Counted from the stretch's first letter, positions 2,836 through 32,298 are shown. The stretch is 39,165 nucleotides of DNA from an uncultured Clostridia bacterium (GCA_964482715.1 CAYZYX010000014.1:1-39165), one strand, 5' to 3'. The notes: generated from the letters alone by a model not told the origin. A program made the numbers and translations.

Positions 2836-3208
2836 TTACCTCCTCCATTGCTCTAATCCAGGCTTCTCTCAGAGGTTTAATTAAACTGATGACCTCTTCC
2901 ACCATTTGAATGTTTTTCTCAAGGTTGGCCTGAACCAGTCGGTAATGCATATATTCGTAAATCCTGTACAGATTAACCGCTATCTCCCCAGCCTTAAGAT
3001 TAAGAGAGCACATCAGTTCTCTTATTATTCCCTGTGATTTTACGAGAAGGTTATGACTTTTCTCTATGTCTTTTATTGAGATTTCCTCTTTTGCTTGGTT
3101 TAGACATTTGATTAACTCATCATACAGAATGAGGATTAATTTAGCGGGTGAGCTTGTCAGTATTTCCATTTCCCGGTATTTTTTCAAAGCATGAGGCTGT
3201 CTTTGCAT
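2819..3208 (-). CDS. fliS: Flagellar export chaperone FliS
   Basis: TSSPAKLILILYD, ELMCSLN and NLYRIYEYM motifs. Start placed at ATG 3208 behind GGAGG (the ORF track starts at 3226). Confidence 0.95.
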   Translation of the reverse strand: MQRQPHALKKYREMEILTSSPAKLILILYDELIKCLNQAKEEISIKDIEKSHNLLVKSQGIIRELMCSLNLKAGEIAVNLYRIYEYMHYRLVQANLEKNIQMVEEVISLIKPLREAWIRAMEEVNEGYN

Positions 3209-3233: not shown

Positions 3234-6200
3234 TTACCCGTTGCTCCTTAAATTATAAAAGGCATACACTTGCTGCGTAAGCCAGGTACTTTGAGCCTGC
3301 ATCACACTTAAATACTGCTCCATATAGGTAAACTGTCTCCATAAAGATTCCTCTTTCATCTGAAGCAGTTTTTCCTGAGTCTCAATTCTTTCCTCATAAT
3401 CTTCATTTTGAGCCTGCAGACTGTCCTCTATGGTGGCAATTAAACCGGTTGTGCTGTCGGTGACGTAGCTTAAGTAGTCTTTTAGTTTCCCGGCAATCCC
3501 TGTATACTGGTAAGCCTCAAATTCAATCACCCTTGACCATTCTCCATCATTACTGTCATTTATCTTTAACCTTATTGCCTGAGTGGAAACGGAAAAAAGA
3601 TAATGGGTCATGACTCCCTGAGTATTACTGGTTACGGTTGTATAAGTTATCCAGTCATCATCACTGTTGGGATCTCCATTGGGAGCTAAATACTGGAGCT
3701 CGTAATCTTTTATCCCGTAGGTAGAGGCAGGATAGGTATCGGAATCAAGGGTGTAAATCATCACTTTATTTAAAGTCCTGATTTGATCAAAAGTAAGGGT
3801 AAGATAATCGGGAAACTCGGATTGAGTCCCATCTTTCCAGCCACCACCAGAAGTTCCCCAGTTATCCGACGTGGTCTCCCCATTGTTAACACTTTCAACC
3901 GGGAAATTTCCACTTGAATGGGTTGAAGAAGCACTGGCAGTTGTCCCGAAAGAAGACAGAGCTACATTTCGGTTTGCCGAAAAAAGCTCTTTTACTCCCT
4001 CCAGATCAGTAGTCAAAATCTGATTTAAGGTTGTCTCATTAACGTTTAAGTGCCCCGTGAGATCCGGGGTAATCCCGAGTTCAAATATTGAAGTTATGGA
4101 GGAAGAGCCCTCCACAGGGTTAGTTATAATTTGGACAATCTGGTTACGAATGTTGGTGAGAGTTATCTTGCCAAAAAGTGGCCCTCCTTCCTGATTGGTA
4201 TCGGCATCGTAGCTTTGCTGCTGATTTATATCGTCTATCAGGTTATTGTAGGCATCTATAAGATTGGAAATAGCTTGTCTGATACCCTCTATGTCAGCCT
4301 CCACACTGACATTCACCGTTGTATCAGGATCGGCGGAAATAAGACTTAAGGTAACCCCGGGAATAGCCTGATCAATCTGGTTGGAAGTATCGGTGATTAA
4401 AACCTCACTGCCTTCTTCTCCTATCACAATTGCCGCATTCTGGGGTAAAACGGTGGTGGTAAGTTCAAGACTTTTTCCTGTGGAAAGTGCGGGGTCTATC
4501 ACCATCCTTCCTGCCTTACCCATCCTGCTACTTGTGATAACCAGATGATAGGGATTTATACCGGAGCCATCATTAATTATGGACGCATAAACGCCGGCAT
4601 CTGCATCATTGATGGCATTCATTATTCCCTGCAAAGTCGTGTTCTCTGAGGTAATAGTTACGGAGACCTCAAAACTTCCATCAATGGTGCTACTATCTGT
4701 ACTCTGCAGAATATTAAGGTCTCTGGCAGTTGTTCCTCCTGCCTCCTCCACCTTGAGAGGAGATGCAGTCTGCCCTGTGTTGTCAGTTATTAATATCCCG
4801 TTACCACTGGAATTTATACTTGCCGTAACATCAATTCCTGAAGCGGAGTTGATAGCATCAAGAACATCCCCTATGGTTTCAGCACTGGATAAATCCACCT
4901 CTGCGCTCTGTCCTGAACGATCAGTAATTAGAATTTTATTTCTATCTACTCCCTGGCCACCATTTAGATCATCAAGCCTGGTGCAACGGGCAATGTATTG
5001 AGGATTTAAATCGTCTCCTTCAATTGTATCCGCATCCACACTCTTAAGGATTCCCAGATCTGAAGCAGCAGAACTTCCATTAAGAGCAGTAACAGAAAAA
5101 TTTCCTGTTCCTCCTGAACTATCGGTCAGAAGAATACCGTTGCCCTCCCTATCATAGGATGCAGTAACAGCTGTATTTCCAGTGGCACTGTTTATAAGGT
5201 TGATAACCTCTTGAAGGGTCTCAGCACCACTTATATCCACATTAAAGCTGTTACCATCTCTTTGAGTTATCTGAAAATCATCTCCTGTTACACTACTAAC
5301 ACCGTTTCCTCCATTTAAGGTTTTTAAAAGGATGGTGTTTAGACCTGGAATAATACGGTCCCCCACCCTGTCTCCGGCAACACCCGTTGTGTAAATTCCA
5401 AGATCATGGGCAGTGGTTCCTCCATCTACCTCATCAACGATTAAATCCTGAGTAGGTGAAGCATTAAGATCGTGAATTGTGATACCGTTACCATTGGAAT
5501 TAATCTGAACTTCAACGTTTATATTTGGTGCAGCCTCTATCAGATCTTTCACATCCTGCAGGGTGGTGGCTGAAGAAAGATCAATAACGTCCACATTGCC
5601 GACACGGTCGGTGATCTGAATGGATCCCTTGTAAACACCTGTCCCATCGTTTAAAAGGTCAAGCGGCGTTTCCCAGCTAATGTTATTTATATCCTCTCCA
5701 TGAATTACACTTGAGTCAACTCCATCAGGACCTGTGTAAATTCCAAGATCATGAGCGGTGGTTCCTCCATCTACCTCATCAACAATAAAATTACCACTCC
5801 CTCCTGATGTATCGGTGAGCTTTATAGCATCTCCCACATTATAACCTGCATCGTAATCTATTTCTGCGGTTACCTGAATGTCTGAATTTTCATTGATAGC
5901 ATCAATAACATCCTGGATAGTTAATGCACCGGTAAGGTCAATAGTGGCCGAATTTCCACTGCGGTCAACGATTCTTATGGCACCTCGCCCGATTCCCTGC
6001 TGTTCATTAAGCCATTCCAAACTGGTTTTTTTGTCAACCCACCCATTTCCAAGCTCTATGGTTATAATGTCATCTGCCGAGGCTACTACTTCATCTGTTG
6101 ATTGAAATCCCCGTGAGGTGAGCTGATGGGTCTGAGAAAGCTGATACACTTTTACCGGGTAAAGACCCACCTGGGGAGTTCCATTTATAGTGGCTGTAAT

Positions 6201-6452
6201 AATATTCTCATTGCTTGATGTTACACTTCTTGCCTGAAAAGTCACCGGCTGGGACAGGACAGTAGCATAGTTTTGCAGGGTTAGAAGCCTTGCCGTTATT
6301 GAACCCCAGGCGGTAAGTTCTGTATTGTTTTCTTCAATTTTTTGCTGGAGTGAATTTATATAGGCACGATCACGCATAAGAAGAGCCTGGATAACCTGGT
6401 CCCAGTTTATACTGGAAAAAAGACCTGTTACGTACTGTGTTGGCTCGGCCAT
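3234..6452 (-). CDS. fliD: Flagellar filament cap protein FliD, unusually long (internal repeats plus a discoidin-like insert)
   Basis: FliD N-terminus (VTGLFSSINWDQVIQALL), IPGVTLSL, YNNL and C-terminal LWRQFTYMEQYLSVMQAQS; located between fliC and fliS. Confidence 0.92.
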   Translation of the reverse strand: MAEPTQYVTGLFSSINWDQVIQALLMRDRAYINSLQQKIEENNTELTAWGSITARLLTLQNYATVLSQPVTFQARSVTSSNENIITATINGTPQVGLYPVKVYQLSQTHQLTSRGFQSTDEVVASADDIITIELGNGWVDKKTSLEWLNEQQGIGRGAIRIVDRSGNSATIDLTGALTIQDVIDAINENSDIQVTAEIDYDAGYNVGDAIKLTDTSGGSGNFIVDEVDGGTTAHDLGIYTGPDGVDSSVIHGEDINNISWETPLDLLNDGTGVYKGSIQITDRVGNVDVIDLSSATTLQDVKDLIEAAPNINVEVQINSNGNGITIHDLNASPTQDLIVDEVDGGTTAHDLGIYTTGVAGDRVGDRIIPGLNTILLKTLNGGNGVSSVTGDDFQITQRDGNSFNVDISGAETLQEVINLINSATGNTAVTASYDREGNGILLTDSSGGTGNFSVTALNGSSAASDLGILKSVDADTIEGDDLNPQYIARCTRLDDLNGGQGVDRNKILITDRSGQSAEVDLSSAETIGDVLDAINSASGIDVTASINSSGNGILITDNTGQTASPLKVEEAGGTTARDLNILQSTDSSTIDGSFEVSVTITSENTTLQGIMNAINDADAGVYASIINDGSGINPYHLVITSSRMGKAGRMVIDPALSTGKSLELTTTVLPQNAAIVIGEEGSEVLITDTSNQIDQAIPGVTLSLISADPDTTVNVSVEADIEGIRQAISNLIDAYNNLIDDINQQQSYDADTNQEGGPLFGKITLTNIRNQIVQIITNPVEGSSSITSIFELGITPDLTGHLNVNETTLNQILTTDLEGVKELFSANRNVALSSFGTTASASSTHSSGNFPVESVNNGETTSDNWGTSGGGWKDGTQSEFPDYLTLTFDQIRTLNKVMIYTLDSDTYPASTYGIKDYELQYLAPNGDPNSDDDWITYTTVTSNTQGVMTHYLFSVSTQAIRLKINDSNDGEWSRVIEFEAYQYTGIAGKLKDYLSYVTDSTTGLIATIEDSLQAQNEDYEERIETQEKLLQMKEESLWRQFTYMEQYLSVMQAQSTWLTQQVYAFYNLRSNG
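5388..5783. repeat. 51-bp near-identical direct repeat inside fliD (5388-5438 and 5733-5783)
   Basis: TGTGTAAATTCCAAGATCATG(G/A)GC(A/G)GTGGTTCCTCCATCTACCTCATCAAC, 2 mismatches; both copies encode VDEVDGGTTAHDLGIYT. Confidence 0.9.
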
Positions 6453-21646: not shown

Positions 21647-22763
21647 AACTTATTTTATCAAAAAAGCCAGAAAACTGGTCATAAAGGTAGGTAGCAGTTT
21701 GCTATTAAAGGAGAAGGAAATTGATTTGCCCTTTGTGACAGAACTTGTTGATTCAATAGATAAACTCTTAAAGGAAGGAAGACAGGTGGTTCTGGTATCC
21801 TCTGGAGCTATTGCCCTTGGAAGTAAGAAAGTAAAAGGAAGCCATCGGTTTCAAAATCTGAAAGCTATCCCTTCCAAACAGGCTCTGGCAAGCATTGGCC
21901 AGATCCAACTCATGGATCTTTACTACCGATGGTTTGAAAAAAGGGGCCTAATTGTAGGTCAGGTTCTTCTAACTGCAGGAGATCTCTCTCACCGCCTGGC
22001 TTATCTTAATGCCCGAAACACCATCCTTACTCTCCTCAACCTGGAAACCATCCCCATAGTGAATGAAAATGATACAGTTGCTGTGGAGGAGATAAAATTT
22101 GGAGATAATGATACTCTTTCAGCACTGGTTGCCGGGCTTATAGATGCCGACCTTCTGGTTATACTTTCCGACATTGAGGGGCTTTACACCTGTGATCCTA
22201 AAAAAAATCCCCGGGCCGAACTTATTCCTCTGGTGGATAGAATAAACAGGGAAATAGAACAGATGGCTCAGGGAACCTGTGTGGAGGGAAGAGTAGGTGG
22301 AATGCAAACAAAAATAGAGGCAGCCAAAGTAGCTACCAGGTCCGGAATACCGGTGATTATTGGTGGCGGTAGAGGCTTTTTAAAGAGACTCTTTTCTACA
22401 GCCCAGGGTGGAACACTTTTTCTTCCCGCTAAGGATAGGCTCCAGGCCAAAAAACAGTGGATTGCATATGGAAGCAAGGTAAAGGGAAAAATCCTTGTGG
22501 ATGAGGGGGCAAAGGAGGCAATTTTAAAAAAAGGAGGAAGTCTTCTTCCTGTAGGTATAAAAGGGGTGGTGGGTAAGTTTCAACCGGGTGATACGGTGGG
22601 ACTGGTGGATTTTCAGGGAAAGGAGTTTGCCAGAGGGATAGTCTATTATTCAAATCAGGAACTGGAAAAATTAAAAGGTGTACACACCCAGGAGATTGAG
22701 AAAAAACTGGGATACAAATATTATGATGAGGTGATACACCGGGACAATCTGGTTATCATCTAA
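21633..22763 (+). CDS. proB: Glutamate 5-kinase with PUA domain
   Basis: VIKVGSS, VSSGAI, NENDTV, GDNDTLSA, GGMQTK and IHRDNLV motifs. Confidence 0.97.
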   Translation: MKAGRTYFIKKARKLVIKVGSSLLLKEKEIDLPFVTELVDSIDKLLKEGRQVVLVSSGAIALGSKKVKGSHRFQNLKAIPSKQALASIGQIQLMDLYYRWFEKRGLIVGQVLLTAGDLSHRLAYLNARNTILTLLNLETIPIVNENDTVAVEEIKFGDNDTLSALVAGLIDADLLVILSDIEGLYTCDPKKNPRAELIPLVDRINREIEQMAQGTCVEGRVGGMQTKIEAAKVATRSGIPVIIGGGRGFLKRLFSTAQGGTLFLPAKDRLQAKKQWIAYGSKVKGKILVDEGAKEAILKKGGSLLPVGIKGVVGKFQPGDTVGLVDFQGKEFARGIVYYSNQELEKLKGVHTQEIEKKLGYKYYDEVIHRDNLVII

Positions 22764-23664
22764 TTTCAAACCCGATGTCTTTCAGAGAATCAATGTTTTT
22801 GCGCCACCCTTTCTTTACACCTATATTCAAATCAAGATAAACCCTGCATCCCAGGCGATTTTCTATCTCCTTTCTGGCCAGTTCTCCTATTTTCTTAATC
22901 ATACTCCCCTTTTTCCCTATAAGGATACCTTTTTGAGATGAGTGTTCCGCATAAATGGTGGCACTTATATAGGTTAGATCCCGGCTTCTCTCCTTAAACT
23001 CATGAACCTTAACCAGAACAGAATAGGGAACCTCCTGACGGGTAAGCTGAAATACCTTTTCTCTTATAAGTTCTGCCACCAGAATCCTCTCTGGTTGATC
23101 GGTAATCAAATCTGAAGAATAATAGGGGGGATGATCGGGAAGATAGCCAATTATTTCTCCCGTCAGGATAGACAGGTTGGTTCCCTTTTTGGCAGAAATG
23201 GGAATGGATTTGTTAAAAGTAAAAAGTTTTTCATACTCACCCATGTAGTTATCTATTTCCTCTTTTTTTATTCTGTCGATTTTGTTTAATGCCAGAATGG
23301 TCGGCTTTCTTATTTTTTTTAAATGAGAGAAAATAAACTCATCTTCGGGTCCGGGAATTTTAGGTTCAACAATCACCACCACCACATCCACCCCCTCCAG
23401 ACCCTTTATAGTTTCTTCCAGAATCTTTCGATCAACTGGTGTGGGAGCTTTGTCTATATGCATGAGCCCTGGAGTATCCACAAAGACAATCTGAGCTTCC
23501 TCAAAGGTAACAACTCCCCTTATAATGTTACGTGTAGTCTGAGGTCGTGGAGAAATGATGGCAATTTTTTCCCCCACCAGTTTGTTCAATAAAGTGGATT
23601 TTCCCACATTGGGTCTACCCACAAGTGTCACAAAACCGGCCTTGTATTGAGTATTTGGATTCAT
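22756..23664 (-). CDS. era: GTPase Era
   Basis: GRPNVGKSTL, PQTTR, DTPG and NKID motifs; KH domain with SQKGILIGKKG. Confidence 0.97.
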   Translation of the reverse strand: MNPNTQYKAGFVTLVGRPNVGKSTLLNKLVGEKIAIISPRPQTTRNIIRGVVTFEEAQIVFVDTPGLMHIDKAPTPVDRKILEETIKGLEGVDVVVVIVEPKIPGPEDEFIFSHLKKIRKPTILALNKIDRIKKEEIDNYMGEYEKLFTFNKSIPISAKKGTNLSILTGEIIGYLPDHPPYYSSDLITDQPERILVAELIREKVFQLTRQEVPYSVLVKVHEFKERSRDLTYISATIYAEHSSQKGILIGKKGSMIKKIGELARKEIENRLGCRVYLDLNIGVKKGWRKNIDSLKDIGFEIR

Positions 23665-23728: not shown

Positions 23729-23986
23729 TTATGTAGTTTGGCGATTGTACTCGTTAAGAACCTCTCTTTGAATTGTCTCTCTCAATTCTGGAGTTAAAGG
23801 GTAGGCAGTGTCAATAAACTCCCCGTTGGGTAATTTTCGAGAAGGCATAGCTACAAAGGGGCCATCTCTTCCCTGAATGATTTTAAGTCCATGAATGCGG
23901 AACTCATTGTCAAAAGTTAAAGTTACCCAGGCTTTAAATCTATCTTTGCCTTCCACTTTCTTTATTTTTATCTCAGAAATTCTCAA
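23729..23986 (-). CDS. spoVG: SpoVG family nucleic-acid-binding regulator
   Basis: KAWVTLTFDNEFRIHGLKII.G..G.FVAMPSRK motif; TTG start at 23986 behind AGGAGG. Confidence 0.93.
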   Translation of the reverse strand: MRISEIKIKKVEGKDRFKAWVTLTFDNEFRIHGLKIIQGRDGPFVAMPSRKLPNGEFIDTAYPLTPELRETIQREVLNEYNRQTT

Positions 23987-23987
23987 G

Positions 23988-24875
23988 CTAATCCTCCTTG
24001 CTAACTCCTTCAACAGGTTGTGTCACAAAAACTTTTCCCTTTCCCGAAAGAGCTTTTGCCAGCTTTAGAGCAGTTTCTCTATCCTCCACCAGACCAAAGA
24101 CCGTGGATCCGCTTCCTGACATCAAAACCCCTCTCACACCCATATTTTTAATTTTTTTCTTAATATCACCTATTACGGGAAACCTCTCAACCACCACCTC
24201 CTCTAATTTATTGTAAAGCAAACCTTCCACGCTGGTAAGTTTCCTGGAAGATAATATCTGTTTTACCCGGCTCAAGTTTAATTTAACATTTAAACCTGAC
24301 GGTGTCAACCTTGAACTGACCTTTGAATAAGCCCAGGCTGTGGACACCGGTATCTCTGGATAAACAAGAACCACCCAGCCTTCCCTCATGGAAGGTAGTG
24401 GGTAAATTTTCTCGCCTTTACCCCTCAAAATAGCTGTTCCACCAAGGATACAAAAAGGAACATCAGCACCCAGTTTCAAAGAACAACTTAAAAGTCTGGA
24501 AAGGTCAATTCGGGTGTCAAAAAGCCAGTTCAACCCTATTAAAGTCCCGGCAGCATCGGCACTACCTCCTCCCAGTCCTCCACCCACGGGAATTTTCTTT
24601 TCAAGGTATATCTTTACTCCCGGGGAAATAGAGGTTACTTCAAAGAAGAGTTTTGCCGCTTTGAAGACCAGGTTATCCCCTTTCCGAAGCCCGCTACCCT
24701 CAGAAAGATCAATCTCAATACCTTTTTTTATTTTTTCCAGTCGAAGAACGTCGTAGAGACTGATGGACTGAGCAAGGGATTCAATTTCATGATACCCATC
24801 ATCTCTCCTGTACAGGACATCAAGATAAAGATTTAGCTTGGCTGGAACCCTCAGGGCTAATCTTCTCATTGTCAT
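23988..24875 (-). CDS. ispE: 4-diphosphocytidyl-2C-methyl-D-erythritol kinase
   Basis: PAKLNLYL, DGYHE, KKIPVGGGLGGGSADAA, LGADVPF and MSGSGSTVF motifs. Confidence 0.97.
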   Translation of the reverse strand: MTMRRLALRVPAKLNLYLDVLYRRDDGYHEIESLAQSISLYDVLRLEKIKKGIEIDLSEGSGLRKGDNLVFKAAKLFFEVTSISPGVKIYLEKKIPVGGGLGGGSADAAGTLIGLNWLFDTRIDLSRLLSCSLKLGADVPFCILGGTAILRGKGEKIYPLPSMREGWVVLVYPEIPVSTAWAYSKVSSRLTPSGLNVKLNLSRVKQILSSRKLTSVEGLLYNKLEEVVVERFPVIGDIKKKIKNMGVRGVLMSGSGSTVFGLVEDRETALKLAKALSGKGKVFVTQPVEGVSKED

Positions 24876-24881
24876 AACTTA

Positions 24882-27152
24882 CTAATCACATTCGCTGTAA
24901 CCACAGGATTTGCAAACGAAACAGCCACCTTCATGTTCTATTGCACTTGACCCACATTCAGGACAGGCTCCAATTCCTCTTTCTGACTGAAAGTTAGCCG
25001 GTTTTACCTCCAGTTTCTTTTCTACTTTTTTTATCTTAACCTCGGAGAGAGGTTTCTTGCCTGCCTTCTCTTCCTGGTAAAGTTCTATAGCTTTAGCTAC
25101 GGCATCGGCACAGGAAAGAATTCTGCCTTTTCCAAGACCCCAGGGACGATCACAGCTTATTCCTTTAAGTTGTTTTACTATTAAAAACCAGGGAATTCCC
25201 GAACGAAGGGCAAGAGAAGCCAGTCTTCCTATTGCCTCTGTCTGGGAAGCTGCACATCCTCCTGATTTTCCAAGTTGAGCAAAAACCTCAAAAGGTTCCC
25301 CTTGCTCATCTTCATTTATGGTGACATAAAGGTCCCCACATCCTGTTCTTATCTCTCTGGTCATACCATAGGTTACCTTTGCTCGAGGACGAGGGGTAAG
25401 AACCGCTTTTTCCCTTTCCTTTTCCCCTACCGTGATTACCTGTTCCTCTCTACTTTTGTCTCGATAAACCGTTATTCCCTTGCATCCCAGTTTATAAGCC
25501 AGAATAAAGGCATCTCTGATATCATTTTTTGTGGCACTGTTGGGCAAATTGATGGTTTTGGACACTGCATTATCGGTGTAGCGCTGAAAAACAGCCTGCA
25601 TCTTTATATGGTCCTGGTAGGAAATATCAAAGGCAGTAACAAATATTTTTCTTATCTCCTCCGGAACCTCAGATATATCCTGACAGCTTCCGTTGGTGGC
25701 GGCAATTTTGTCCATAAGTTCTCTGGAATAAAAGCCTTCCTTCCGGGCTATTTTTTCAAATTCACCGTTAATATATAAAAGTCTTTCTCCTCCCAGGACT
25801 TCCTTGTAGTAAACCAGACTAAAAAGAGGTTCAATACCTGAAGAGCAGTCCGCAATCATGGAAATACTGCCCGTAGGCGCGATGGTAGTGGTGGTGGCAT
25901 TTCTAAGTGCCATTCCCCTCTCGTTCCACACACTTTTCTTAAAATTAGGGAAGACTCCCCTTTCTTTAGCTATTTTTTGAGAAGCCTTTTTGGACTCTTC
26001 CTGAATAAAGCTCATCAACTTTTCTGCCAGATTTAAAGCCTTCTTAGAATTGTATGGAATCCTCAATTTAATCAGCGTATCGGCAAATCCCATAACTCCC
26101 AAACCGATTTTTCGGTTTGCCTTGGTATTTTTTTCAATCTGGGGTAGAGGATACCTGTTCATGTCTATCACGTTATCCAAAAAGCGCACGGCAATGTGAA
26201 CCACTCCTCTTAGCTTTTCCCAGTTCAACTTTCCATTTTCCACCATGCAGGAAAGATTTATAGAACCCAGATTACAGGATTCATAAGGAAGAAGGGGCTG
26301 TTCACCACAGGGATTTGTGGATTCTATGAGTGCTATCTTGGGCGTGGGATTGAACTGGTTTATTCTATCCAGAAAGATAATTCCCGGTTCACCGTTTTTC
26401 CAGGCCATTTCTGCTATTTTGTCCAGGACTTCAGCAGCATTTAACCTGCCGGAGACTTTCCCCGTATGAGGGTCTATAAGTTCATACTCACCCTGTCTCT
26501 GGGCAGCTTCCATAAAAGCATCACTCACCGCAACAGAGATATTGAAATTTCTAAGTTCCCCTTCTTTCTCCTTGCAGGTTATAAACTCCAGAATATCAGG
26601 ATGATTCACGTTAAGGATACCCATATTGGCACCACGTCTTCTTCCACCCTGCTTTATGGCTTCCGTGGAAGCATCAAAAACCTTCATGAAAGAAACAGGA
26701 CCACTTGCCACACCTGAAGTTGTCCCCACCGGAGAACCTTTAGGCCTTATTCTGCTGAAAGAAAAACCTGTTCCCCCACCGGATTTATGAATTATGGCTG
26801 CATGTTTTATAGCTTCATAAATAGATTCTATGGAATCATCAACCGAGAGAACAAAACAGGCAGAAAGTTGCTGCAGATTTGTTCCTGCATTCATAAGTGT
26901 GGGGGAGTTGGGGAGAAATTCAAAGCGTGCCATAATCTCAAAAAAATTCTCCTCTATTTCCTTTACCTCTTTTTCGCTTTTTCCGTACAGCTTTTCGGCC
27001 TGTGCAATGTTATGAGCCACCCGTTGGAACATCTGTTCCGGAGTTTCAATCACTTTACCCTCGGTGTCTTTCTGTAGATATCTTTTTTCAAGGACTTTTA
27101 AGGCATTATCTGACAGGTTAATTTTAAATCTTGCAGACATTTTTTTCCTCAT
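24882..27152 (-). CDS. nrdJ: Adenosylcobalamin-dependent (class II) ribonucleotide reductase with C-terminal TSCPD/zinc-ribbon region
   Basis: FLPNSPTLMNAG, QLSACF, TNPCGEQPL, IAPTGSIS, KGITVYRD, TGCG, SCADA and CPEC...CKSCGYSEC motifs. Confidence 0.95.
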   Translation of the reverse strand: MRKKMSARFKINLSDNALKVLEKRYLQKDTEGKVIETPEQMFQRVAHNIAQAEKLYGKSEKEVKEIEENFFEIMARFEFLPNSPTLMNAGTNLQQLSACFVLSVDDSIESIYEAIKHAAIIHKSGGGTGFSFSRIRPKGSPVGTTSGVASGPVSFMKVFDASTEAIKQGGRRRGANMGILNVNHPDILEFITCKEKEGELRNFNISVAVSDAFMEAAQRQGEYELIDPHTGKVSGRLNAAEVLDKIAEMAWKNGEPGIIFLDRINQFNPTPKIALIESTNPCGEQPLLPYESCNLGSINLSCMVENGKLNWEKLRGVVHIAVRFLDNVIDMNRYPLPQIEKNTKANRKIGLGVMGFADTLIKLRIPYNSKKALNLAEKLMSFIQEESKKASQKIAKERGVFPNFKKSVWNERGMALRNATTTTIAPTGSISMIADCSSGIEPLFSLVYYKEVLGGERLLYINGEFEKIARKEGFYSRELMDKIAATNGSCQDISEVPEEIRKIFVTAFDISYQDHIKMQAVFQRYTDNAVSKTINLPNSATKNDIRDAFILAYKLGCKGITVYRDKSREEQVITVGEKEREKAVLTPRPRAKVTYGMTREIRTGCGDLYVTINEDEQGEPFEVFAQLGKSGGCAASQTEAIGRLASLALRSGIPWFLIVKQLKGISCDRPWGLGKGRILSCADAVAKAIELYQEEKAGKKPLSEVKIKKVEKKLEVKPANFQSERGIGACPECGSSAIEHEGGCFVCKSCGYSECD

Positions 27153-27931
27153 CAGGTCTTTAATTTAGCTGATATAATCTCAGCTACTTTTTTACCAGAA
27201 AGAAGCATTCCACCAAATACAGGTCCCATCCTTGGTGCTCCATATACGGCATTGGCCGCCATTCCGCTCACATAAATTCCAGGATAAACTTCCCTTGTGT
27301 ATTCCAGAATTGCCGTCTCTCCCTTTTCTGCCCACATGGGACCTTCACCGATTATTTTCCCGGTTGGAGTATTTAGTTTTATATTCTCTCTTTGCTGGAG
27401 CTTTTTTATCACTTCACACCCGTGACCGGTTGCATCCACTGTAGCCTCACAACCCACTGTCAGAGGATCAACATGCAAACCGGCTGTTTTTGTAGCCACC
27501 CAGTTTATCACCAATCCCTGAACTTTTCCATCCTTCACCATCACATCCTCAACTTCCACAAGATTAAAGATCTTCACCCCTTCTCTTATTGCCTTTAAGG
27601 TGAGGCAGGCTACTGCCTCCAGAGAATCTGCCACGTAGTAACCATCATGGTAAGGGGTACATTTTATCTGCATCTCTTCCAGTATCGCCCGAGCTGGTTC
27701 CTGAACCACTATTTTGTTAAACATCATCCCCCCTCCAGGCATACCTCCACCCAGTCTCAGGCTCTTCTCAAAAATTGCGGTCCTTATACCACTTTTTGCC
27801 AGATAGTATCCCGCAGTCAATCCAGCAGGTCCGGCTCCCACCACAGCAACTTTTACCTTCAGACTCTGCTGAAAATCTCTAAAAAAACTCTCAACAATTG
27901 CCCGGGAAATTATGGTCTCATCCAGTTTCAT
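27152..27931 (-). CDS. thi4: Sulfide-dependent adenosine diphosphate thiazole synthase (Thi4, His-type)
   Basis: [33 protein letters not shown] and [14 protein letters not shown] motifs. Confidence 0.95.
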
Positions 27932-27946
27932 GGCACTTTTCTCCTT

Positions 27947-29017
27947 TTAATTTCTTATTACCCTTTCAATCCATCCCCCTCCAAGAACGACATCTTCCCT
28001 GTAAAACACGGCAGCCTGACCAGGAGTAATGGCCCATTGAGGCTGAAAAAAATCTACCCTGCATCTTTTCTCTTCCAGAGGGTAAACTACAGCTTCAGAC
28101 TCAGGATGCTGATATCTTATCTTTACCTTGCAGGTGATTTTCTCTTCTGGCTGCGAAATACTGACCCAGTTCACTCTGGACACCTCCATACTCCGGGAGT
28201 AAAGGTCCTCTCTTTCTCCCAGAATTATAGCACCATCTTTCTTCCTGATCTCCATCACGTAAAGAGGTTTCCTTCTTCCACCTCCCAGACCGCGTCTCTG
28301 TCCCACCGTAAAAAAGGGTATCCCCTTATGGGTTCCAATTAGCCGACCTTCTTTAGTTAGAAGAGGACCTGGTCGGGAAGAGTTGGGTATTCTCTGAATT
28401 AAAAAGTCATTATAACTTTTTTGCAGAATAAAGCAAACCTCCTGGCTTTGCTTTTTCTGGGAAACAGGCAGATTTAATCCATCTGCCAGCTTTTTAACTT
28501 CACTTTTGGTCCAGTCAGAAAGGGGAAAGATGGCATGGGCAAGCTGGTATTGAGAAAGAGAAAAAAGAAAATAAGACTGATCCTTTTCCCTGTCCTTGCC
28601 CTTTTTAAGGCAGTACCGTCCTTTTTTGTGGTCATAATTCACTTTAGTGTAATGTCCGGTGGCCACATATGAAGCACCCAGTTTTCTGGCTTTTTTTAAA
28701 AGTACTCCGAATTTGATTTTCTCATTACAAACAACACAGGGATTAGGAGTGCGGGCATTGATGTACTCTTCACAGAAATACTCCACCACCTCCTTTTCAA
28801 ACTCATTTACCAGGTTGACAACATAAAAAGGGATGGACAAAATCCGGGCAACCCGTCGAGCATCCTCAATGTTTTCCGGACTGCAATACCTGCTTCCATC
28901 CTGCCAGAGTTTCATGCTTATACCAATCACCTCATAACCCTGCTGGATCAGAAGGTAGGCGGCAACTGAGCTATCTACCCCACCACTCATGGCTACCACT
29001 ACCTTTTCTCTCCTCAA
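27947..29017 (-). CDS. mnmA: tRNA 2-thiouridine(34) synthase MnmA (CxxC type)
   Basis: SGGVDS, TPNPCVVCN, ATGHY, KDQSYFL, SQEVCF and AITPGQAAVFY motifs. Confidence 0.97.
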   Translation of the reverse strand: MRREKVVVAMSGGVDSSVAAYLLIQQGYEVIGISMKLWQDGSRYCSPENIEDARRVARILSIPFYVVNLVNEFEKEVVEYFCEEYINARTPNPCVVCNEKIKFGVLLKKARKLGASYVATGHYTKVNYDHKKGRYCLKKGKDREKDQSYFLFSLSQYQLAHAIFPLSDWTKSEVKKLADGLNLPVSQKKQSQEVCFILQKSYNDFLIQRIPNSSRPGPLLTKEGRLIGTHKGIPFFTVGQRRGLGGGRRKPLYVMEIRKKDGAIILGEREDLYSRSMEVSRVNWVSISQPEEKITCKVKIRYQHPESEAVVYPLEEKRCRVDFFQPQWAITPGQAAVFYREDVVLGGGWIERVIRN

Positions 29018-29042
29018 AGAGCCTCTCCTATGTAAGGTAAAA

Positions 29043-29447
29043 TTAAAAACATATCTCTATGGCTCTATAAGGACAGGCCTGAACACAAACTCCACAGGCA
29101 ATACACTTTTCACTGTTAAAGGAAACGGTTCTCTCCTTTCTTTCCACTTCAAAAGCACCTACCGGACAAAGAGGAACACAAACTGTACAGTGGTTACATC
29201 TTTCGGGATTCCATCTTATTTCTTCAATTAAAGGATCTACCTTTACACCGACATTTACAAGATAATTTATGCCCCTGTTTATAGCATCCCTGTCTCCACT
29301 AACCTCAAGATCCAGTCTTCCCTCTTCATAAGGGGTTATTTTGGCCTTTATAATGTTTACCACGATATCGTAATCCTTAATCAACCGATAGGTTATTGGC
29401 TCGCTGACCAGTTCTTTGGGAAAAGTTAAAGCCAGTTTTTTCTTCAT
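29043..29447 (-). CDS. NIL-domain 2x[4Fe-4S] ferredoxin
   Basis: N-terminal NIL domain (L.FP...EPITY.L...YD..VNI.KA) plus CNHCTVCVPLCP and CIACGVCVQACP. Confidence 0.9.
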   Translation of the reverse strand: MKKKLALTFPKELVSEPITYRLIKDYDIVVNIIKAKITPYEEGRLDLEVSGDRDAINRGINYLVNVGVKVDPLIEEIRWNPERCNHCTVCVPLCPVGAFEVERKERTVSFNSEKCIACGVCVQACPYRAIEICF

Positions 29448-29459
29448 CAAATCCTCCCC

Positions 29460-29915
29460 CTATCTATAAAACGTGAATTCATGTTTAAATTCATCTAAAC
29501 CTCCTTTTGACCATTCACAAAGATCCTTAAGGGTCGTATTCTCCAGAATCTCCTTTATTTTATCACCCATTTTTTTCCAGAGAAGGCGCACCACACAATT
29601 TTCTGCCTGTTCGCATTGATTTTCCTCAAATTCATCCACACAGAAAACGGGATTTACATTTTCTCCAAGAACACGAAGGATGTTGATTATTTTTATCTCC
29701 TCCGGCTTCCGTGCTAGAAGAAATCCTCCTCCCGGACCCTTCACGCTGTAAACAAGTCTTGCCCTGCCAAGTCTGTTCAATATCTGCTCCAGATAGGCAA
29801 GAGATATGTTCTGCTCTCTGGCTATTTTCTTAACCGGGACAGGATAAGAACCGTAGTTTTTGGCCAGCTCGAACATAGCTCTCACTCCATATCTTGCTCG
29901 TGTTGACAATCTCAT
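29460..29915 (-). CDS. Rrf2-family transcriptional regulator (IscR-like, three Cys)
   Basis: MRLSTRARYG.RAM, YLEQI, S.KGPGGGF.L and C-x8-C-x5-C motifs. Confidence 0.93.
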   Translation of the reverse strand: MRLSTRARYGVRAMFELAKNYGSYPVPVKKIAREQNISLAYLEQILNRLGRARLVYSVKGPGGGFLLARKPEEIKIINILRVLGENVNPVFCVDEFEENQCEQAENCVVRLLWKKMGDKIKEILENTTLKDLCEWSKGGLDEFKHEFTFYR

Positions 29916-29940
29916 TTAGTCGCCTCCACTATTAAAATCT

Positions 29941-29967
29941 ATAAACATTATCAATTCAGTCAAGTAT
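29941..29967 (-). promoter_or_regulatory. Putative Rrf2/IscR-type operator overlapping the -35 of the rrf2 operon
   Basis: Minus strand ATACTTGACTGAATTGATAATGTTTAT; the left half matches the IscR type-1 half-site ATASYYGACT. Confidence 0.5.
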
Positions 29968-30099
29968 TTTCTTCTTTAAACCCTTCTTTTTTGACCAAAC
30001 CTTAGATATTTTATTTAACAATAACCCGGCTATCAGTCAATAGGTTTTGAGTCTAAAGTTGGGATACTTGACAAATACAATGTGTTTAATAGAAAAGGA

Positions 30100-30795
30100 A
30101 TGATGGATAAAAATAAAATATGTTTTCTGGTTGAAGCTGGATTAGTAGATTACCGGAAGGCGCTTGAAGTGCAAAAAAAGACCCATCTCGCCAAAAAGTG
30201 TGGAAAAATAAAGGAGGATGTTCTCTTCGTTCTGGAACATCCGCCAACTATTACCATTGGCAGAAAAGGCTCCATAAAAGAGATTCTGGCTGATGAAATT
30301 AAACTAAAAAAAGAGGGGATTTCTGTTTACCACATCGGAAGAGGAGGAAAAGTTACCTATCATGGCCCGGGTCAATTGGTGGGTTATCCTGTACTTGATC
30401 TGACCGATTACGGGAAAGATCTCCATCTTTATCTCAGAAATCTGGAAGAGGTAATTATAGAAACTCTCAGAGATTTTTCGGTTCCTGCCGGAAGGAGAAA
30501 AGGTCTTACCGGAGTATGGGTTGATAGCTACAAAATAGCTTCTATAGGGATAGAAATAAAAAACTGGATAAGTTTACACGGATTTGCGCTAAATATAAAT
30601 TGTAACCTCAATCATTTTACTTTAATTAATCCCTGCGGAATGCATCCCTCAGCTATAACCTCACTGGAAAAAATTCTGGGATACTCTCCCCCCCTGGAAG
30701 AGGTCATTTCCCGTTTGACCTCTCACTTTGCCCGGGTATTTTCAGTATCCTTTCTCCCGGAAAGACTTGATAAATTTCAGGAAAAAATCGGGTAA
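30100..30795 (+). CDS. lipB: Lipoyl(octanoyl) transferase LipB
   Basis: LEHPPTITIG, RGGKVTYHGPGQLVGYP, KIASIG, HGFALN and INPCG motifs. Exact start uncertain (30082-30103). Confidence 0.95.
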   Translation: MMDKNKICFLVEAGLVDYRKALEVQKKTHLAKKCGKIKEDVLFVLEHPPTITIGRKGSIKEILADEIKLKKEGISVYHIGRGGKVTYHGPGQLVGYPVLDLTDYGKDLHLYLRNLEEVIIETLRDFSVPAGRRKGLTGVWVDSYKIASIGIEIKNWISLHGFALNINCNLNHFTLINPCGMHPSAITSLEKILGYSPPLEEVISRLTSHFARVFSVSFLPERLDKFQEKIG

Positions 30796-30811: not shown

Positions 30812-31222
30812 TTATTCTTTATGGATCTGGAGTTTTATTTTCTTAAATTTTTTGGCTTCTTTTTCCAGGTATTCCTTTATCTTCTGTTCTTCGGGAGGAG
30901 GAGGCATAATTTCCCTGATGCAATGAACCAGCTTTTTTCTTAAACTGGCATCAGTTACGTTATTCTCAATAAACTTCACTATTCTCTGCTCCAAAGGTGA
31001 ACCCAGCATGTAAAAGTGCACACTTCCGTCATCACTGGGTCCAATACTGGCATAAAGTTCAGCCACAGGGTGAAATTCCTCCGCTTCATAGATCAAATAA
31101 TGAGGCTCATTGTAGTCATTTGGTCTTTTTCTCAGATGAATCCCAACCTCCTGAAAATCTTTAATTAACTGCTCAAATTCCCTGATAACTTCCTCTCTTT
31201 CCTTCACTCTTTTATTCAACAT
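30812..31222 (-). CDS. Hypothetical protein
   Basis: 136-aa ORF with a GGAG RBS and natural-looking composition; no motif recognised. Confidence 0.7.
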   Translation of the reverse strand: MLNKRVKEREEVIREFEQLIKDFQEVGIHLRKRPNDYNEPHYLIYEAEEFHPVAELYASIGPSDDGSVHFYMLGSPLEQRIVKFIENNVTDASLRKKLVHCIREIMPPPPEEQKIKEYLEKEAKKFKKIKLQIHKE

Positions 31223-31752: not shown

Positions 31753-32298
31753 ATGGTAAACTACATACCCTGGAGACTTATAAGAAGCTGGAAGTGTCTT
31801 GCCTGTGGAAGATGCTGTAAGAAATACCGGGTAAACCTGACATGGGAGGAATACGAGAAAATTGCCAGATACTGGCCTCAGGAAGTAAAAAGGACAGGAG
31901 ATGGTTTTTATCTAAAAAGAAGACCTGATGGGGGATGTAGATTTCTGTGGGGAAAACTCTGTTACCTGCAGATATTAAACATTAAACCTCTGGCCTGCAA
32001 ATTATGGCCTTTTATGATCCTGACCAGACCGGACAAAATGGACATAAACTTTGAGGGGCTTTATCAATTTAAAAACAAAGAGTATTTTGTCTATCTTAAT
32101 CCTAAGTGCTCAGGGATAAATAAGGGGGATCCTCTAAACTTAAAAAAAGTAATAGAAGAGGTAATAAATTTATGGCTGGGCCTGAAAAAAAATCAGTATT
32201 ACTCAACCAATAGAGAATCTCTCTTATCTACTCTGGTTGTATCTCAAGAATATAAAGAATACAAAATTGAAAATAGATTTTCGTTCAAGAAAAAATGA
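31753..32298 (+). CDS. YkgJ-family CxxCxxCC cysteine-cluster protein
   Basis: CLACGRCC, GCRFL, LC and KPLACKLWPF motifs. Confidence 0.88.
   Translation: MVNYIPWRLIRSWKCLACGRCCKKYRVNLTWEEYEKIARYWPQEVKRTGDGFYLKRRPDGGCRFLWGKLCYLQILNIKPLACKLWPFMILTRPDKMDINFEGLYQFKNKEYFVYLNPKCSGINKGDPLNLKKVIEEVINLWLGLKKNQYYSTNRESLLSTLVVSQEYKEYKIENRFSFKKK

Follow-up and report, generated by a model that had tools for sequence, protein, structure and literature searches.

We analysed a 39,165-nucleotide (nt) stretch of DNA recorded as an uncultured Clostridia bacterium (GCA_964482715.1, CAYZYX010000014.1:1-39165; hereafter the window) in which genes for an Rrf2-family regulator (rrf2), a NIL-domain ferredoxin (NIL-fd), the tRNA 2-thiouridine(34) synthase MnmA and the thiazole synthase Thi4 follow one another on the minus strand. 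Comparison with related loci indicated that this string is probably a known sulfur-insertion neighborhood in trimmed form, standing first in a housekeeping operon, and that its ferredoxin probably still partners a DUF39 enzyme whose gene lies elsewhere. In this model the window would hold the promoter-proximal part of a long operon (rrf2, NIL-fd, mnmA, thi4, nrdJ, ispE, spoVG, era) of an uncultured anaerobe related to Aerophobetes, and the full neighborhood, which is common in anaerobes, elsewhere comprises a three-Cys Rrf2, cysE, cysK, nifS, nifU or sufBC, HcyBio/DUF39 with the NIL-ferredoxin, a LarE-like gene, a C-type mnmA and thi4. Rrf2 would couple expression to iron-sulfur (Fe-S) or sulfur status through a promoter in the spacer between rrf2 and the divergent lipB, MnmA would use a [4Fe-4S] cluster and ATP for thiolation of U34, and Thi4 would take Fe(II) and sulfide as reactants. 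A sequence-only reading of the same DNA had seen here a candidate for an undescribed system, a sulfur-dedicated operon ending at thi4 in which the ferredoxin fills the slot of the desulfurase gene iscS and may serve MnmA or Thi4; the results given below led us away from each of these proposals.

The survey that carries our reading used an alignment (A1) of 24 of the 59 NIL-ferredoxin relatives obtained from a word-indexed protein search. A genome-contig search with A1 matched at least 600 stretches; the best 80 of the 543 confirmed among these were taken as loci L001-L080. The 812 open reading frames (ORFs) no more than 6 kb from the ferredoxin gene were clustered and the cluster representatives named by Pfam and NCBIfam, "nearby" meaning inside the DNA fetched on either side (up to 10 kb each). 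HcyBio (PF01837, equal to DUF39/COG1900) lay directly upstream of the NIL-ferredoxin gene in 59 of the 75 loci open to assessment (in some of them a small NifU-like gene intervened), was not adjacent in the other 16, and could not be judged in five further loci that ended too close. An unlinked ferredoxin, at 16 of 75, is thus a common state. One such case is described for Desulfovibrio vulgaris Miyazaki, where DvMF_1464 (DUF39) and DvMF_0262 (NIL-ferredoxin) are unlinked and both are required for methionine synthesis (PMC5764234; this and the other papers are cited here from excerpts of their texts). By analogy with that organism, the window ferredoxin most likely serves a DUF39 enzyme encoded elsewhere. 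NIL-ferredoxins have been described as part of a sulfide-linked homocysteine route (PMC5764234, PMC12068725), their role being given as "likely" electron supply (PMC12068725). In Chloroflexota and Bacillota, many loci also encode a 248-residue PRK04334 protein 3' of the ferredoxin (36 of the 80 loci carry PRK04334), and because the DUF39 pathway is described as "encoded by DET0921:DET0919" in Dehalococcoides (PMC5764234) we infer that this protein may be the COG2122 component.

Among the ferredoxins without an adjacent HcyBio we also saw a starred clade in the tree described below (L032, L039, L046 and L071, around 10001, with L033 and L037 cut by contig ends) in which the gene order was HypF, HypD, PRK04334-like, NIL-ferredoxin, Fer4_22, FNR-like, Fer4_11 and NuoH-like, a context of hydrogenase maturation and a membrane complex and not of methionine or sulfur genes.

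The window ferredoxin has the features expected of a subunit of the homocysteine enzyme. Its gene (29043..29450, minus strand) was called as 135 residues from a TTG, with the start probably being the ATG at 29447, 3 nt inside (134 residues), and the product has a NIL domain (Pfam NIL 1.1e-16, residues 6-71) followed by a two-cluster 2x[4Fe-4S] ferredoxin domain (Fer4, residues 79-133). This is the architecture of the MA1822-type small subunit of L-ASST (L-aspartate semialdehyde sulfurtransferase), the enzyme formed by the DUF39/COG1900 protein MA1821 with MA1822, or by the bacterial DUF39 pathway with COG2122. The eight cluster Cys were invariant in A1. A quick maximum-likelihood tree built on 136 columns and 81 rows grouped the window protein with L005-L008 at a Shimodaira-Hasegawa-like approximate likelihood ratio (SH-aLRT) support of 90, on a branch that was not starred; all four of these ferredoxins are HcyBio-adjacent and two of the loci are titled Aerophobetes. 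It retained 40 of the 47 columns that were at least 80% conserved in the 59 HcyBio-adjacent proteins (median 45, minimum 37), and its closer relatives P0002-P0021 retained 38-41 of the 47, most departures being conservative. Taken together, the eight Cys, the tree grouping and the conserved columns argue on sequence grounds that the window ferredoxin is intact and orthologous to the HcyBio-partnered ferredoxins, if somewhat diverged as a lineage. The best named of the 59 relatives were from Candidatus Aerophobetes (80% identity) and Omnitrophota (~50-55%), and the closest of the 80 loci was L007, titled Aerophobetes, with 59-60% identity in the ferredoxin and 50% in Rrf2. Searches of solved structures gave none for the NIL domain, all matches falling on residues 56-134 of the ferredoxin domain.

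The genes around the surveyed ferredoxins were rich in sulfur functions. On the same strand as the ferredoxin gene we found CysK-like genes in 18 of the 80 loci, Rrf2 in 16, NifS-type class-V aminotransferases in 15, NifU-like genes in 14, MnmA and NadA in 12 each, Thi4 in 11 and members of the LarE family (TIGR00268) in 10, and further families included ThiF, ThiE, SufBD, glutaredoxin and thioredoxin reductase. MnmA or Thi4 was nearby in 18 of the 80 loci (both in five), where random placement of a single-copy gene in a genome a few Mb in size would, by a rough estimate, give less than one in 80, so the grouping of MnmA/Thi4 with NIL-ferredoxin is more than chance; the 18 loci are phylogenetically related and do not count as independent events, and their records are titled with several phyla. 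HcyBio was also present in 17 of these 18, the 18th (L077) beginning 195 bp before the ferredoxin gene, and none of the 16 ferredoxins without adjacent HcyBio had MnmA or Thi4 nearby. These two counts tie MnmA and Thi4 to the whole cluster and not to the ferredoxin as such, and they run counter to the earlier suggestion of MnmA or Thi4 as its possible clients.

Gene orders at these loci varied. L007 reads CysE, Rrf2, NifS, CysK, HcyBio, NIL-ferredoxin, and Omnitrophota loci typically have (Rbr, Grx, TrxR) Rrf2, CysK, (Thi4), NifU, HcyBio, NIL-ferredoxin, LarE-like, NifS, BirA and, farther on, MnmA. In L010 (1358-7363) Rrf2 is followed, after an interval, by a SufC-like ABC protein, SufBD, a His-type Thi4, HcyBio, NIL-ferredoxin and a C-type MnmA.

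In a common arrangement an rrf2-iscS-(iscU) series has mnmA nearby in some bacteria, and the ferredoxin had been proposed to take the iscS position. NifS-type desulfurases were present in 12 of the 16 Rrf2-bearing loci and in 7 of the 18 MnmA/Thi4 loci. With both kinds of gene at 12 of the 16, NIL-ferredoxin and desulfurase are not alternatives, and the iscS slot is not filled by the ferredoxin. The desulfurase is likewise kept at L007, where NifS comes right after Rrf2; the sequence-only reading had given such a pattern in close relatives as a ground for refuting it, and L007 is not closely related to the window. The string in the window resembles Rrf2-headed isc/nif operons in that a three-Cys Rrf2 heads an operon holding mnmA, and differs from them in lacking a desulfurase and a scaffold gene and in having a regulator that falls below the IscR and CymR cut-offs. 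No cysteine desulfurase (class-V aminotransferase), CysK or NifU was encoded in the 39-kb window; the earlier statement that a desulfurase is absent holds for the window and does not extend to the genome.

Several observations weigh against the reading we favor. The window encodes neither HcyBio/DUF39, the missing MA1821-like partner already remarked on by the sequence-only reading, nor a COG2122-like protein, so that, in contrast to L-ASST loci, the neighbors of the ferredoxin are Rrf2 and MnmA. Among the 81 loci (the 80 and the window) the window alone has ferredoxin, MnmA and Thi4 demonstrably without an adjacent HcyBio, Rrf2 being upstream instead. The end branch of the window ferredoxin is long (0.88, median 0.15). 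Finally, the lineage of the window seems to have retained the pairing of NIL-ferredoxin with MnmA: five relatives of the ferredoxin (P0007, P0012, P0013, P0014 and P0020; 72-80% identity) and five MnmA relatives (P0066, P0069, P0068, P0065 and P0075; 61-64% identity) agree pair by pair, in the order listed, in source and in the size of their longest contig (28525, 38029, 3902, 1721 and 3624 bp), the pairing being read from the matching contig sizes alone. On the 1721-bp contig a 134-residue and a 360-residue gene leave only ~230 bp, so the two would be neighbors with no room for HcyBio between them; the contig sizes bear on this pair and not on the DNA upstream of the ferredoxin gene.

These observations would suit an alternative in which the NIL-ferredoxin has been recruited as a helper of the C-type MnmA and/or the His-type Thi4, for example by keeping their metal centers reduced or loaded or by handing over sulfide, the string then being a desulfurase-free, direct-sulfide unit. 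A further point in its favor is that the ferredoxin gene directly precedes mnmA not only in the window (25 nt) but also in L010, L038, L072 and L077 (gaps of 19-114 nt), and L010, whose 9.7-kb contig carries SufBC, Thi4, HcyBio, NIL-ferredoxin and MnmA and lacks a desulfurase, comes nearest among the surveyed loci to a "sulfide-only" cluster. However, HcyBio lies directly upstream of the ferredoxin in L010, L038 and L072, L077 being cut at the contig end, and the two survey counts given above, no MnmA or Thi4 near any of the 16 unlinked ferredoxins and a frequent NifS-type desulfurase, also speak against recruitment. The MnmA of Thermus thermophilus, moreover, was active with sulfide, ATP and dithiothreitol (DTT) and no ferredoxin, and it also used IscS or SufS (PMC7025502). 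A search for fused forms of NIL-ferredoxin, including fusions to MnmA or Thi4, among longer proteins returned 115 candidates and none at E <= 1e-3, which is weak evidence, and a complex prediction from the MnmA (A2) and NIL-ferredoxin (A1) alignments scored 0.00 against a mark of 0.32 in a run without controls, a result that counts neither for nor against it. We regard recruitment as decidedly unlikely. Its most specific form, that an Aerophobetes-related lineage uncoupled the NIL-ferredoxin from DUF39 and uses it with a [4Fe-4S] MnmA, and perhaps an iron-dependent Thi4, as a shared redox or sulfide-handling module, is very doubtful; if true, it would provide a desulfurase-independent, Rrf2-controlled route carrying environmental sulfide straight into tRNA and thiamin.

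Coming back to the trimmed-neighborhood reading, the layout of the string is that of a compact operon extending well beyond the sulfur genes. As the earlier reading had it, the four genes are tightly spaced on the minus strand, with gaps between the ORF calls of 9 nt (rrf2/NIL-fd), 25 nt (NIL-fd/mnmA) and 15 nt (mnmA/thi4), a Shine-Dalgarno-like stretch precedes the NIL-fd, mnmA and thi4 starts, and the lipoyl(octanoyl) transferase gene lipB (30082..30795, plus strand; TIGR00214 157 bits, cut-off 83.55) is divergent. The operon does not end at thi4, however, and is not dedicated to sulfur: the thi4 stop and the start of nrdJ (24882..27152, minus strand; B12-dependent class II ribonucleotide reductase, NF006417 1172 bits) share 1 nt (TGATG), and the string goes on, all on the same strand, through ispE (23988..24875, minus strand; IspE kinase, TIGR00154 219.7 bits) 6 nt past nrdJ, a putative SpoVG-like ORF of 94 residues (23729..24013, minus strand; named by reading its sequence, without a family-library scan) that overlaps ispE (-26 nt), and, 64 nt farther, the last co-directional gene, that for the GTPase Era (22756..23664, minus strand; NF000908 350.7 bits). 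A minus-strand terminator scan from rrf2 to era found nothing convincing. Searches for Rfam families and tRNAs found none in the window, so thi4 and nrdJ have no thiamin pyrophosphate (TPP) or B12 riboswitch leader.

The regulator at the head of this string (29460..29915, minus strand; 151 residues, 3 Cys; Pfam Rrf2 3.6e-38) scored 140 bits against the superfamily model TIGR00738 (cut-off 73) and below the equivalog cut-offs for IscR (121.3, cut-off 207.55) and CymR (116.8, cut-off 195). Its three Cys, noted by the sequence-only reading, lie after the DNA-binding domain in a C-x8-C-x5-C pattern and align with those of 19 Rrf2 proteins encoded at related loci. The three-Cys motif was present in all Rrf2 proteins of the surveyed NIL-ferredoxin loci, and regulators of this kind head the sulfur clusters in several phyla; the window Rrf2 probably binds an Fe-S cluster. 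The likely control region is the 166-bp rrf2-lipB intergenic spacer (29916..30081), in which a promoter-like site, TTGACT-16-TAGATT (29936..29963, minus strand; 9/12 matches), lies 20 nt 5' of the rrf2 start. Promoter-like sites numbered 16 in the scanned region and 12.5 were expected from shuffles, making the match upstream of rrf2 weak by itself.

Transcription and control supply the remaining points that count against our reading. Co-transcription from rrf2 to era is putative. We found no inverted repeats at 29900-30100, and a search of the 166-bp spacer for repeats with arms of 8 nt, allowing one mismatch, was likewise negative. A palindrome, TACTCTACTA-N5-ATAGAGATTATAG, common to the rrf2 promoters of L036, L042, L048, L061 and L068 (170 nt upstream of rrf2), looks like a conserved Rrf2 operator, and this Omnitrophota-type palindrome was absent from the window spacer. 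The whole window held one match to it at 3 mismatches (3062-3080), with 3.1 expected by chance. Four of the five palindrome-bearing loci are titled Omnitrophota and L061 is titled Planctomycetales, and the palindrome stands just 3' of a TTGACA / TATACT-like promoter.

It could be that the adjacency has no functional meaning, housekeeping genes of a compact genome being packed on one strand and Rrf2 controlling something else or only itself. The unbroken run into nrdJ, ispE, spoVG and era, unrelated to sulfur, the operator-like repeat not found upstream of rrf2 and the weakness of the promoter-like match there all agree with this idea. Against it, the same families adjoin one another, in varied orders, in loci titled Omnitrophota, Aerophobetes, Chloroflexota, Thermodesulfobacteriota and Bacillota, far above random expectation, and clustering of Thi4 neighborhoods has been reported independently (preprint 10.1101/2025.09.23.678117). 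We judge coincidence to be unlikely, though less so than recruitment.

The enzymes of the two sulfur-insertion genes were supported by family models and by alignment to solved structures. MnmA (27947..29017, minus strand; 356 residues, TTG start) passed the cut-offs of NF001138 (439.5 bits, cut-off 284) and TIGR00420 (364 bits, cut-off 237). Its PCVVC and SQEVCF motifs were as the earlier reading gave them, the third Cys being supplied by SQEVCF, and the CxxC aligned to 9hln: the first Cys of PCVVC corresponds to the Asp of 2hma/9hlv (NPDVMC) and to the Cys of 9hln (NPCVMC). Between the structure sets 9hln/9i7r and 9hlv/9hm3/9hmj plus 2hma the aligned stretch differs visibly only at this D/C position, which suggests that an engineered or natural D-to-C MnmA pair has been solved. 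The window MnmA shares with the T. thermophilus C-type enzyme (PMC7025502) the CxxC...C motif and the PP-loop, and differs in having, in RYCS, one Cys where the CC-CxxC-C motif has the N-terminal CC pair; the N-terminal Cys is described as dispensable and lacking in one C-type variant (PMC7025502). The T. thermophilus enzyme made 2-thiouridine (s2U) in vitro from Na2S, ATP and DTT, needing its [4Fe-4S] cluster, and it also took sulfur from IscS or SufS (PMC7025502). From this assay a ferredoxin is dispensable in vitro and a desulfurase in vivo is still possible. All 12 MnmA proteins encoded near surveyed NIL-ferredoxin genes have the CxxC...C motif.

Thi4 (27152..27931, minus strand; 259 residues) scored 313 bits (cut-off 148) against TIGR00292 ("sulfide-dependent adenosine diphosphate thiazole synthase") and 2.2e-76 against Pfam Thi4. 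As had been read from the sequence, and as in the methanococcal enzymes, a His stands where yeast Thi4 carries the sacrificial Cys: the LHVDP His is matched in 1rp0 by the Cys of SCMDP, which we take to be the sulfur-donor residue, and in 4y4n/4y4m by the His of GLHIDP. When aligned to 7rk0, the VDP Asp and the ATGH His fall on Asp160 and His175, which are the iron ligands of T. ammonificans THI4 (PMC8454699). His-type Thi4 proteins have been described as using sulfide as source and preferring iron, and non-Cys Thi4 genes as clustering with genes for TRASH metal-binding proteins (PMC8454699). The sulfide theme of the sequence-only reading thus has support in the use of Na2S by C-type MnmA (PMC7025502), in the use of sulfide and iron by His-type Thi4 (PMC8454699), in the homocysteine route (PMC5764234, PMC12068725) and in recurrence under three-Cys Rrf2 regulators; the exchange of a ferredoxin for the desulfurase has none.

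The Thi4 genes neighboring NIL-ferredoxin genes were of two kinds, LHVDP in six and Cys before VDP in five (L006 8158-9891, L008 4489-5917, L072 3218-4812, L020 and L068). In L006, L008 and L072 the gene next after the Cys-type Thi4 gene encodes a DUF6775/DUF7001 "probable metallopeptidase"; ThiF is also present in L006 and L008, and a MoaD-like gene in L006, matching the excerpted part of the preprint 10.1101/2025.09.23.678117. That preprint reports Cys-type Thi4 clustering with ThiF/ThiS, CysK, NifS, NifU, CysE, LarE, MnmA, HcyBio and DUF6775 in more than 400 neighborhoods, and the likeness to our survey is plain in that the same sulfur families surround Thi4 there and NIL-ferredoxin genes here. 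As far as the excerpt goes, it differs in having surveyed Cys-type ("suicide") Thi4 with stress on ThiS/ThiF and DUF6775, whereas the window Thi4 is His-type and the window, unlike those neighborhoods, has no ThiF, ThiS, DUF6775, NifS or CysK. In view of the clustering of Thi4 with CysK, NifS, NifU, CysE, LarE, MnmA and HcyBio in that preprint, the system can hardly be called undescribed, and the main contribution of the window is a further arrangement, this one holding a His-type Thi4, of a neighborhood already noted for the Cys-type. Our literature search, with most subscription journals outside it, found no paper linking NIL-ferredoxin with MnmA or Rrf2, or placing it beside MnmA without DUF39. 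Our understanding of how sulfide enters cofactors and tRNA in strict anaerobes without the help of cysteine desulfurases is only partial, and if the genome proved to lack DUF39, the MnmA/Thi4-adjacent ferredoxin would be a natural test for clients beyond the homocysteine enzyme.

LarE-family PP-loop genes (TIGR00268, 319-335 bits) occurred in L036, L042, L043, L048, L050, L061, L068, L076, L003 and L038, directly 3' of the NIL-ferredoxin gene in eight of the ten; in L003 and L038 the distance downstream is ~1.1-1.2 kb. NifS and BirA often come next after the LarE-family gene.

The remaining genes of the window belong to flagellar, chemotaxis and core metabolism functions. Near lipB are a 136-residue protein with no Pfam or NCBIfam match (30812-31222, minus strand) and a 181-residue CxxCxxCC protein (31753-32298, plus strand; PF03692, putative zinc- or iron-chelating). 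A PseD-like flagellin-modification protein of 654 residues is encoded at 263-2227, and the FliD filament cap protein (3234-6452, minus strand), at 1072 residues, seems to hold a large extra region, since the matching profiles are only 465-673 positions long and their matches cover residues 8-224 and 576-842.

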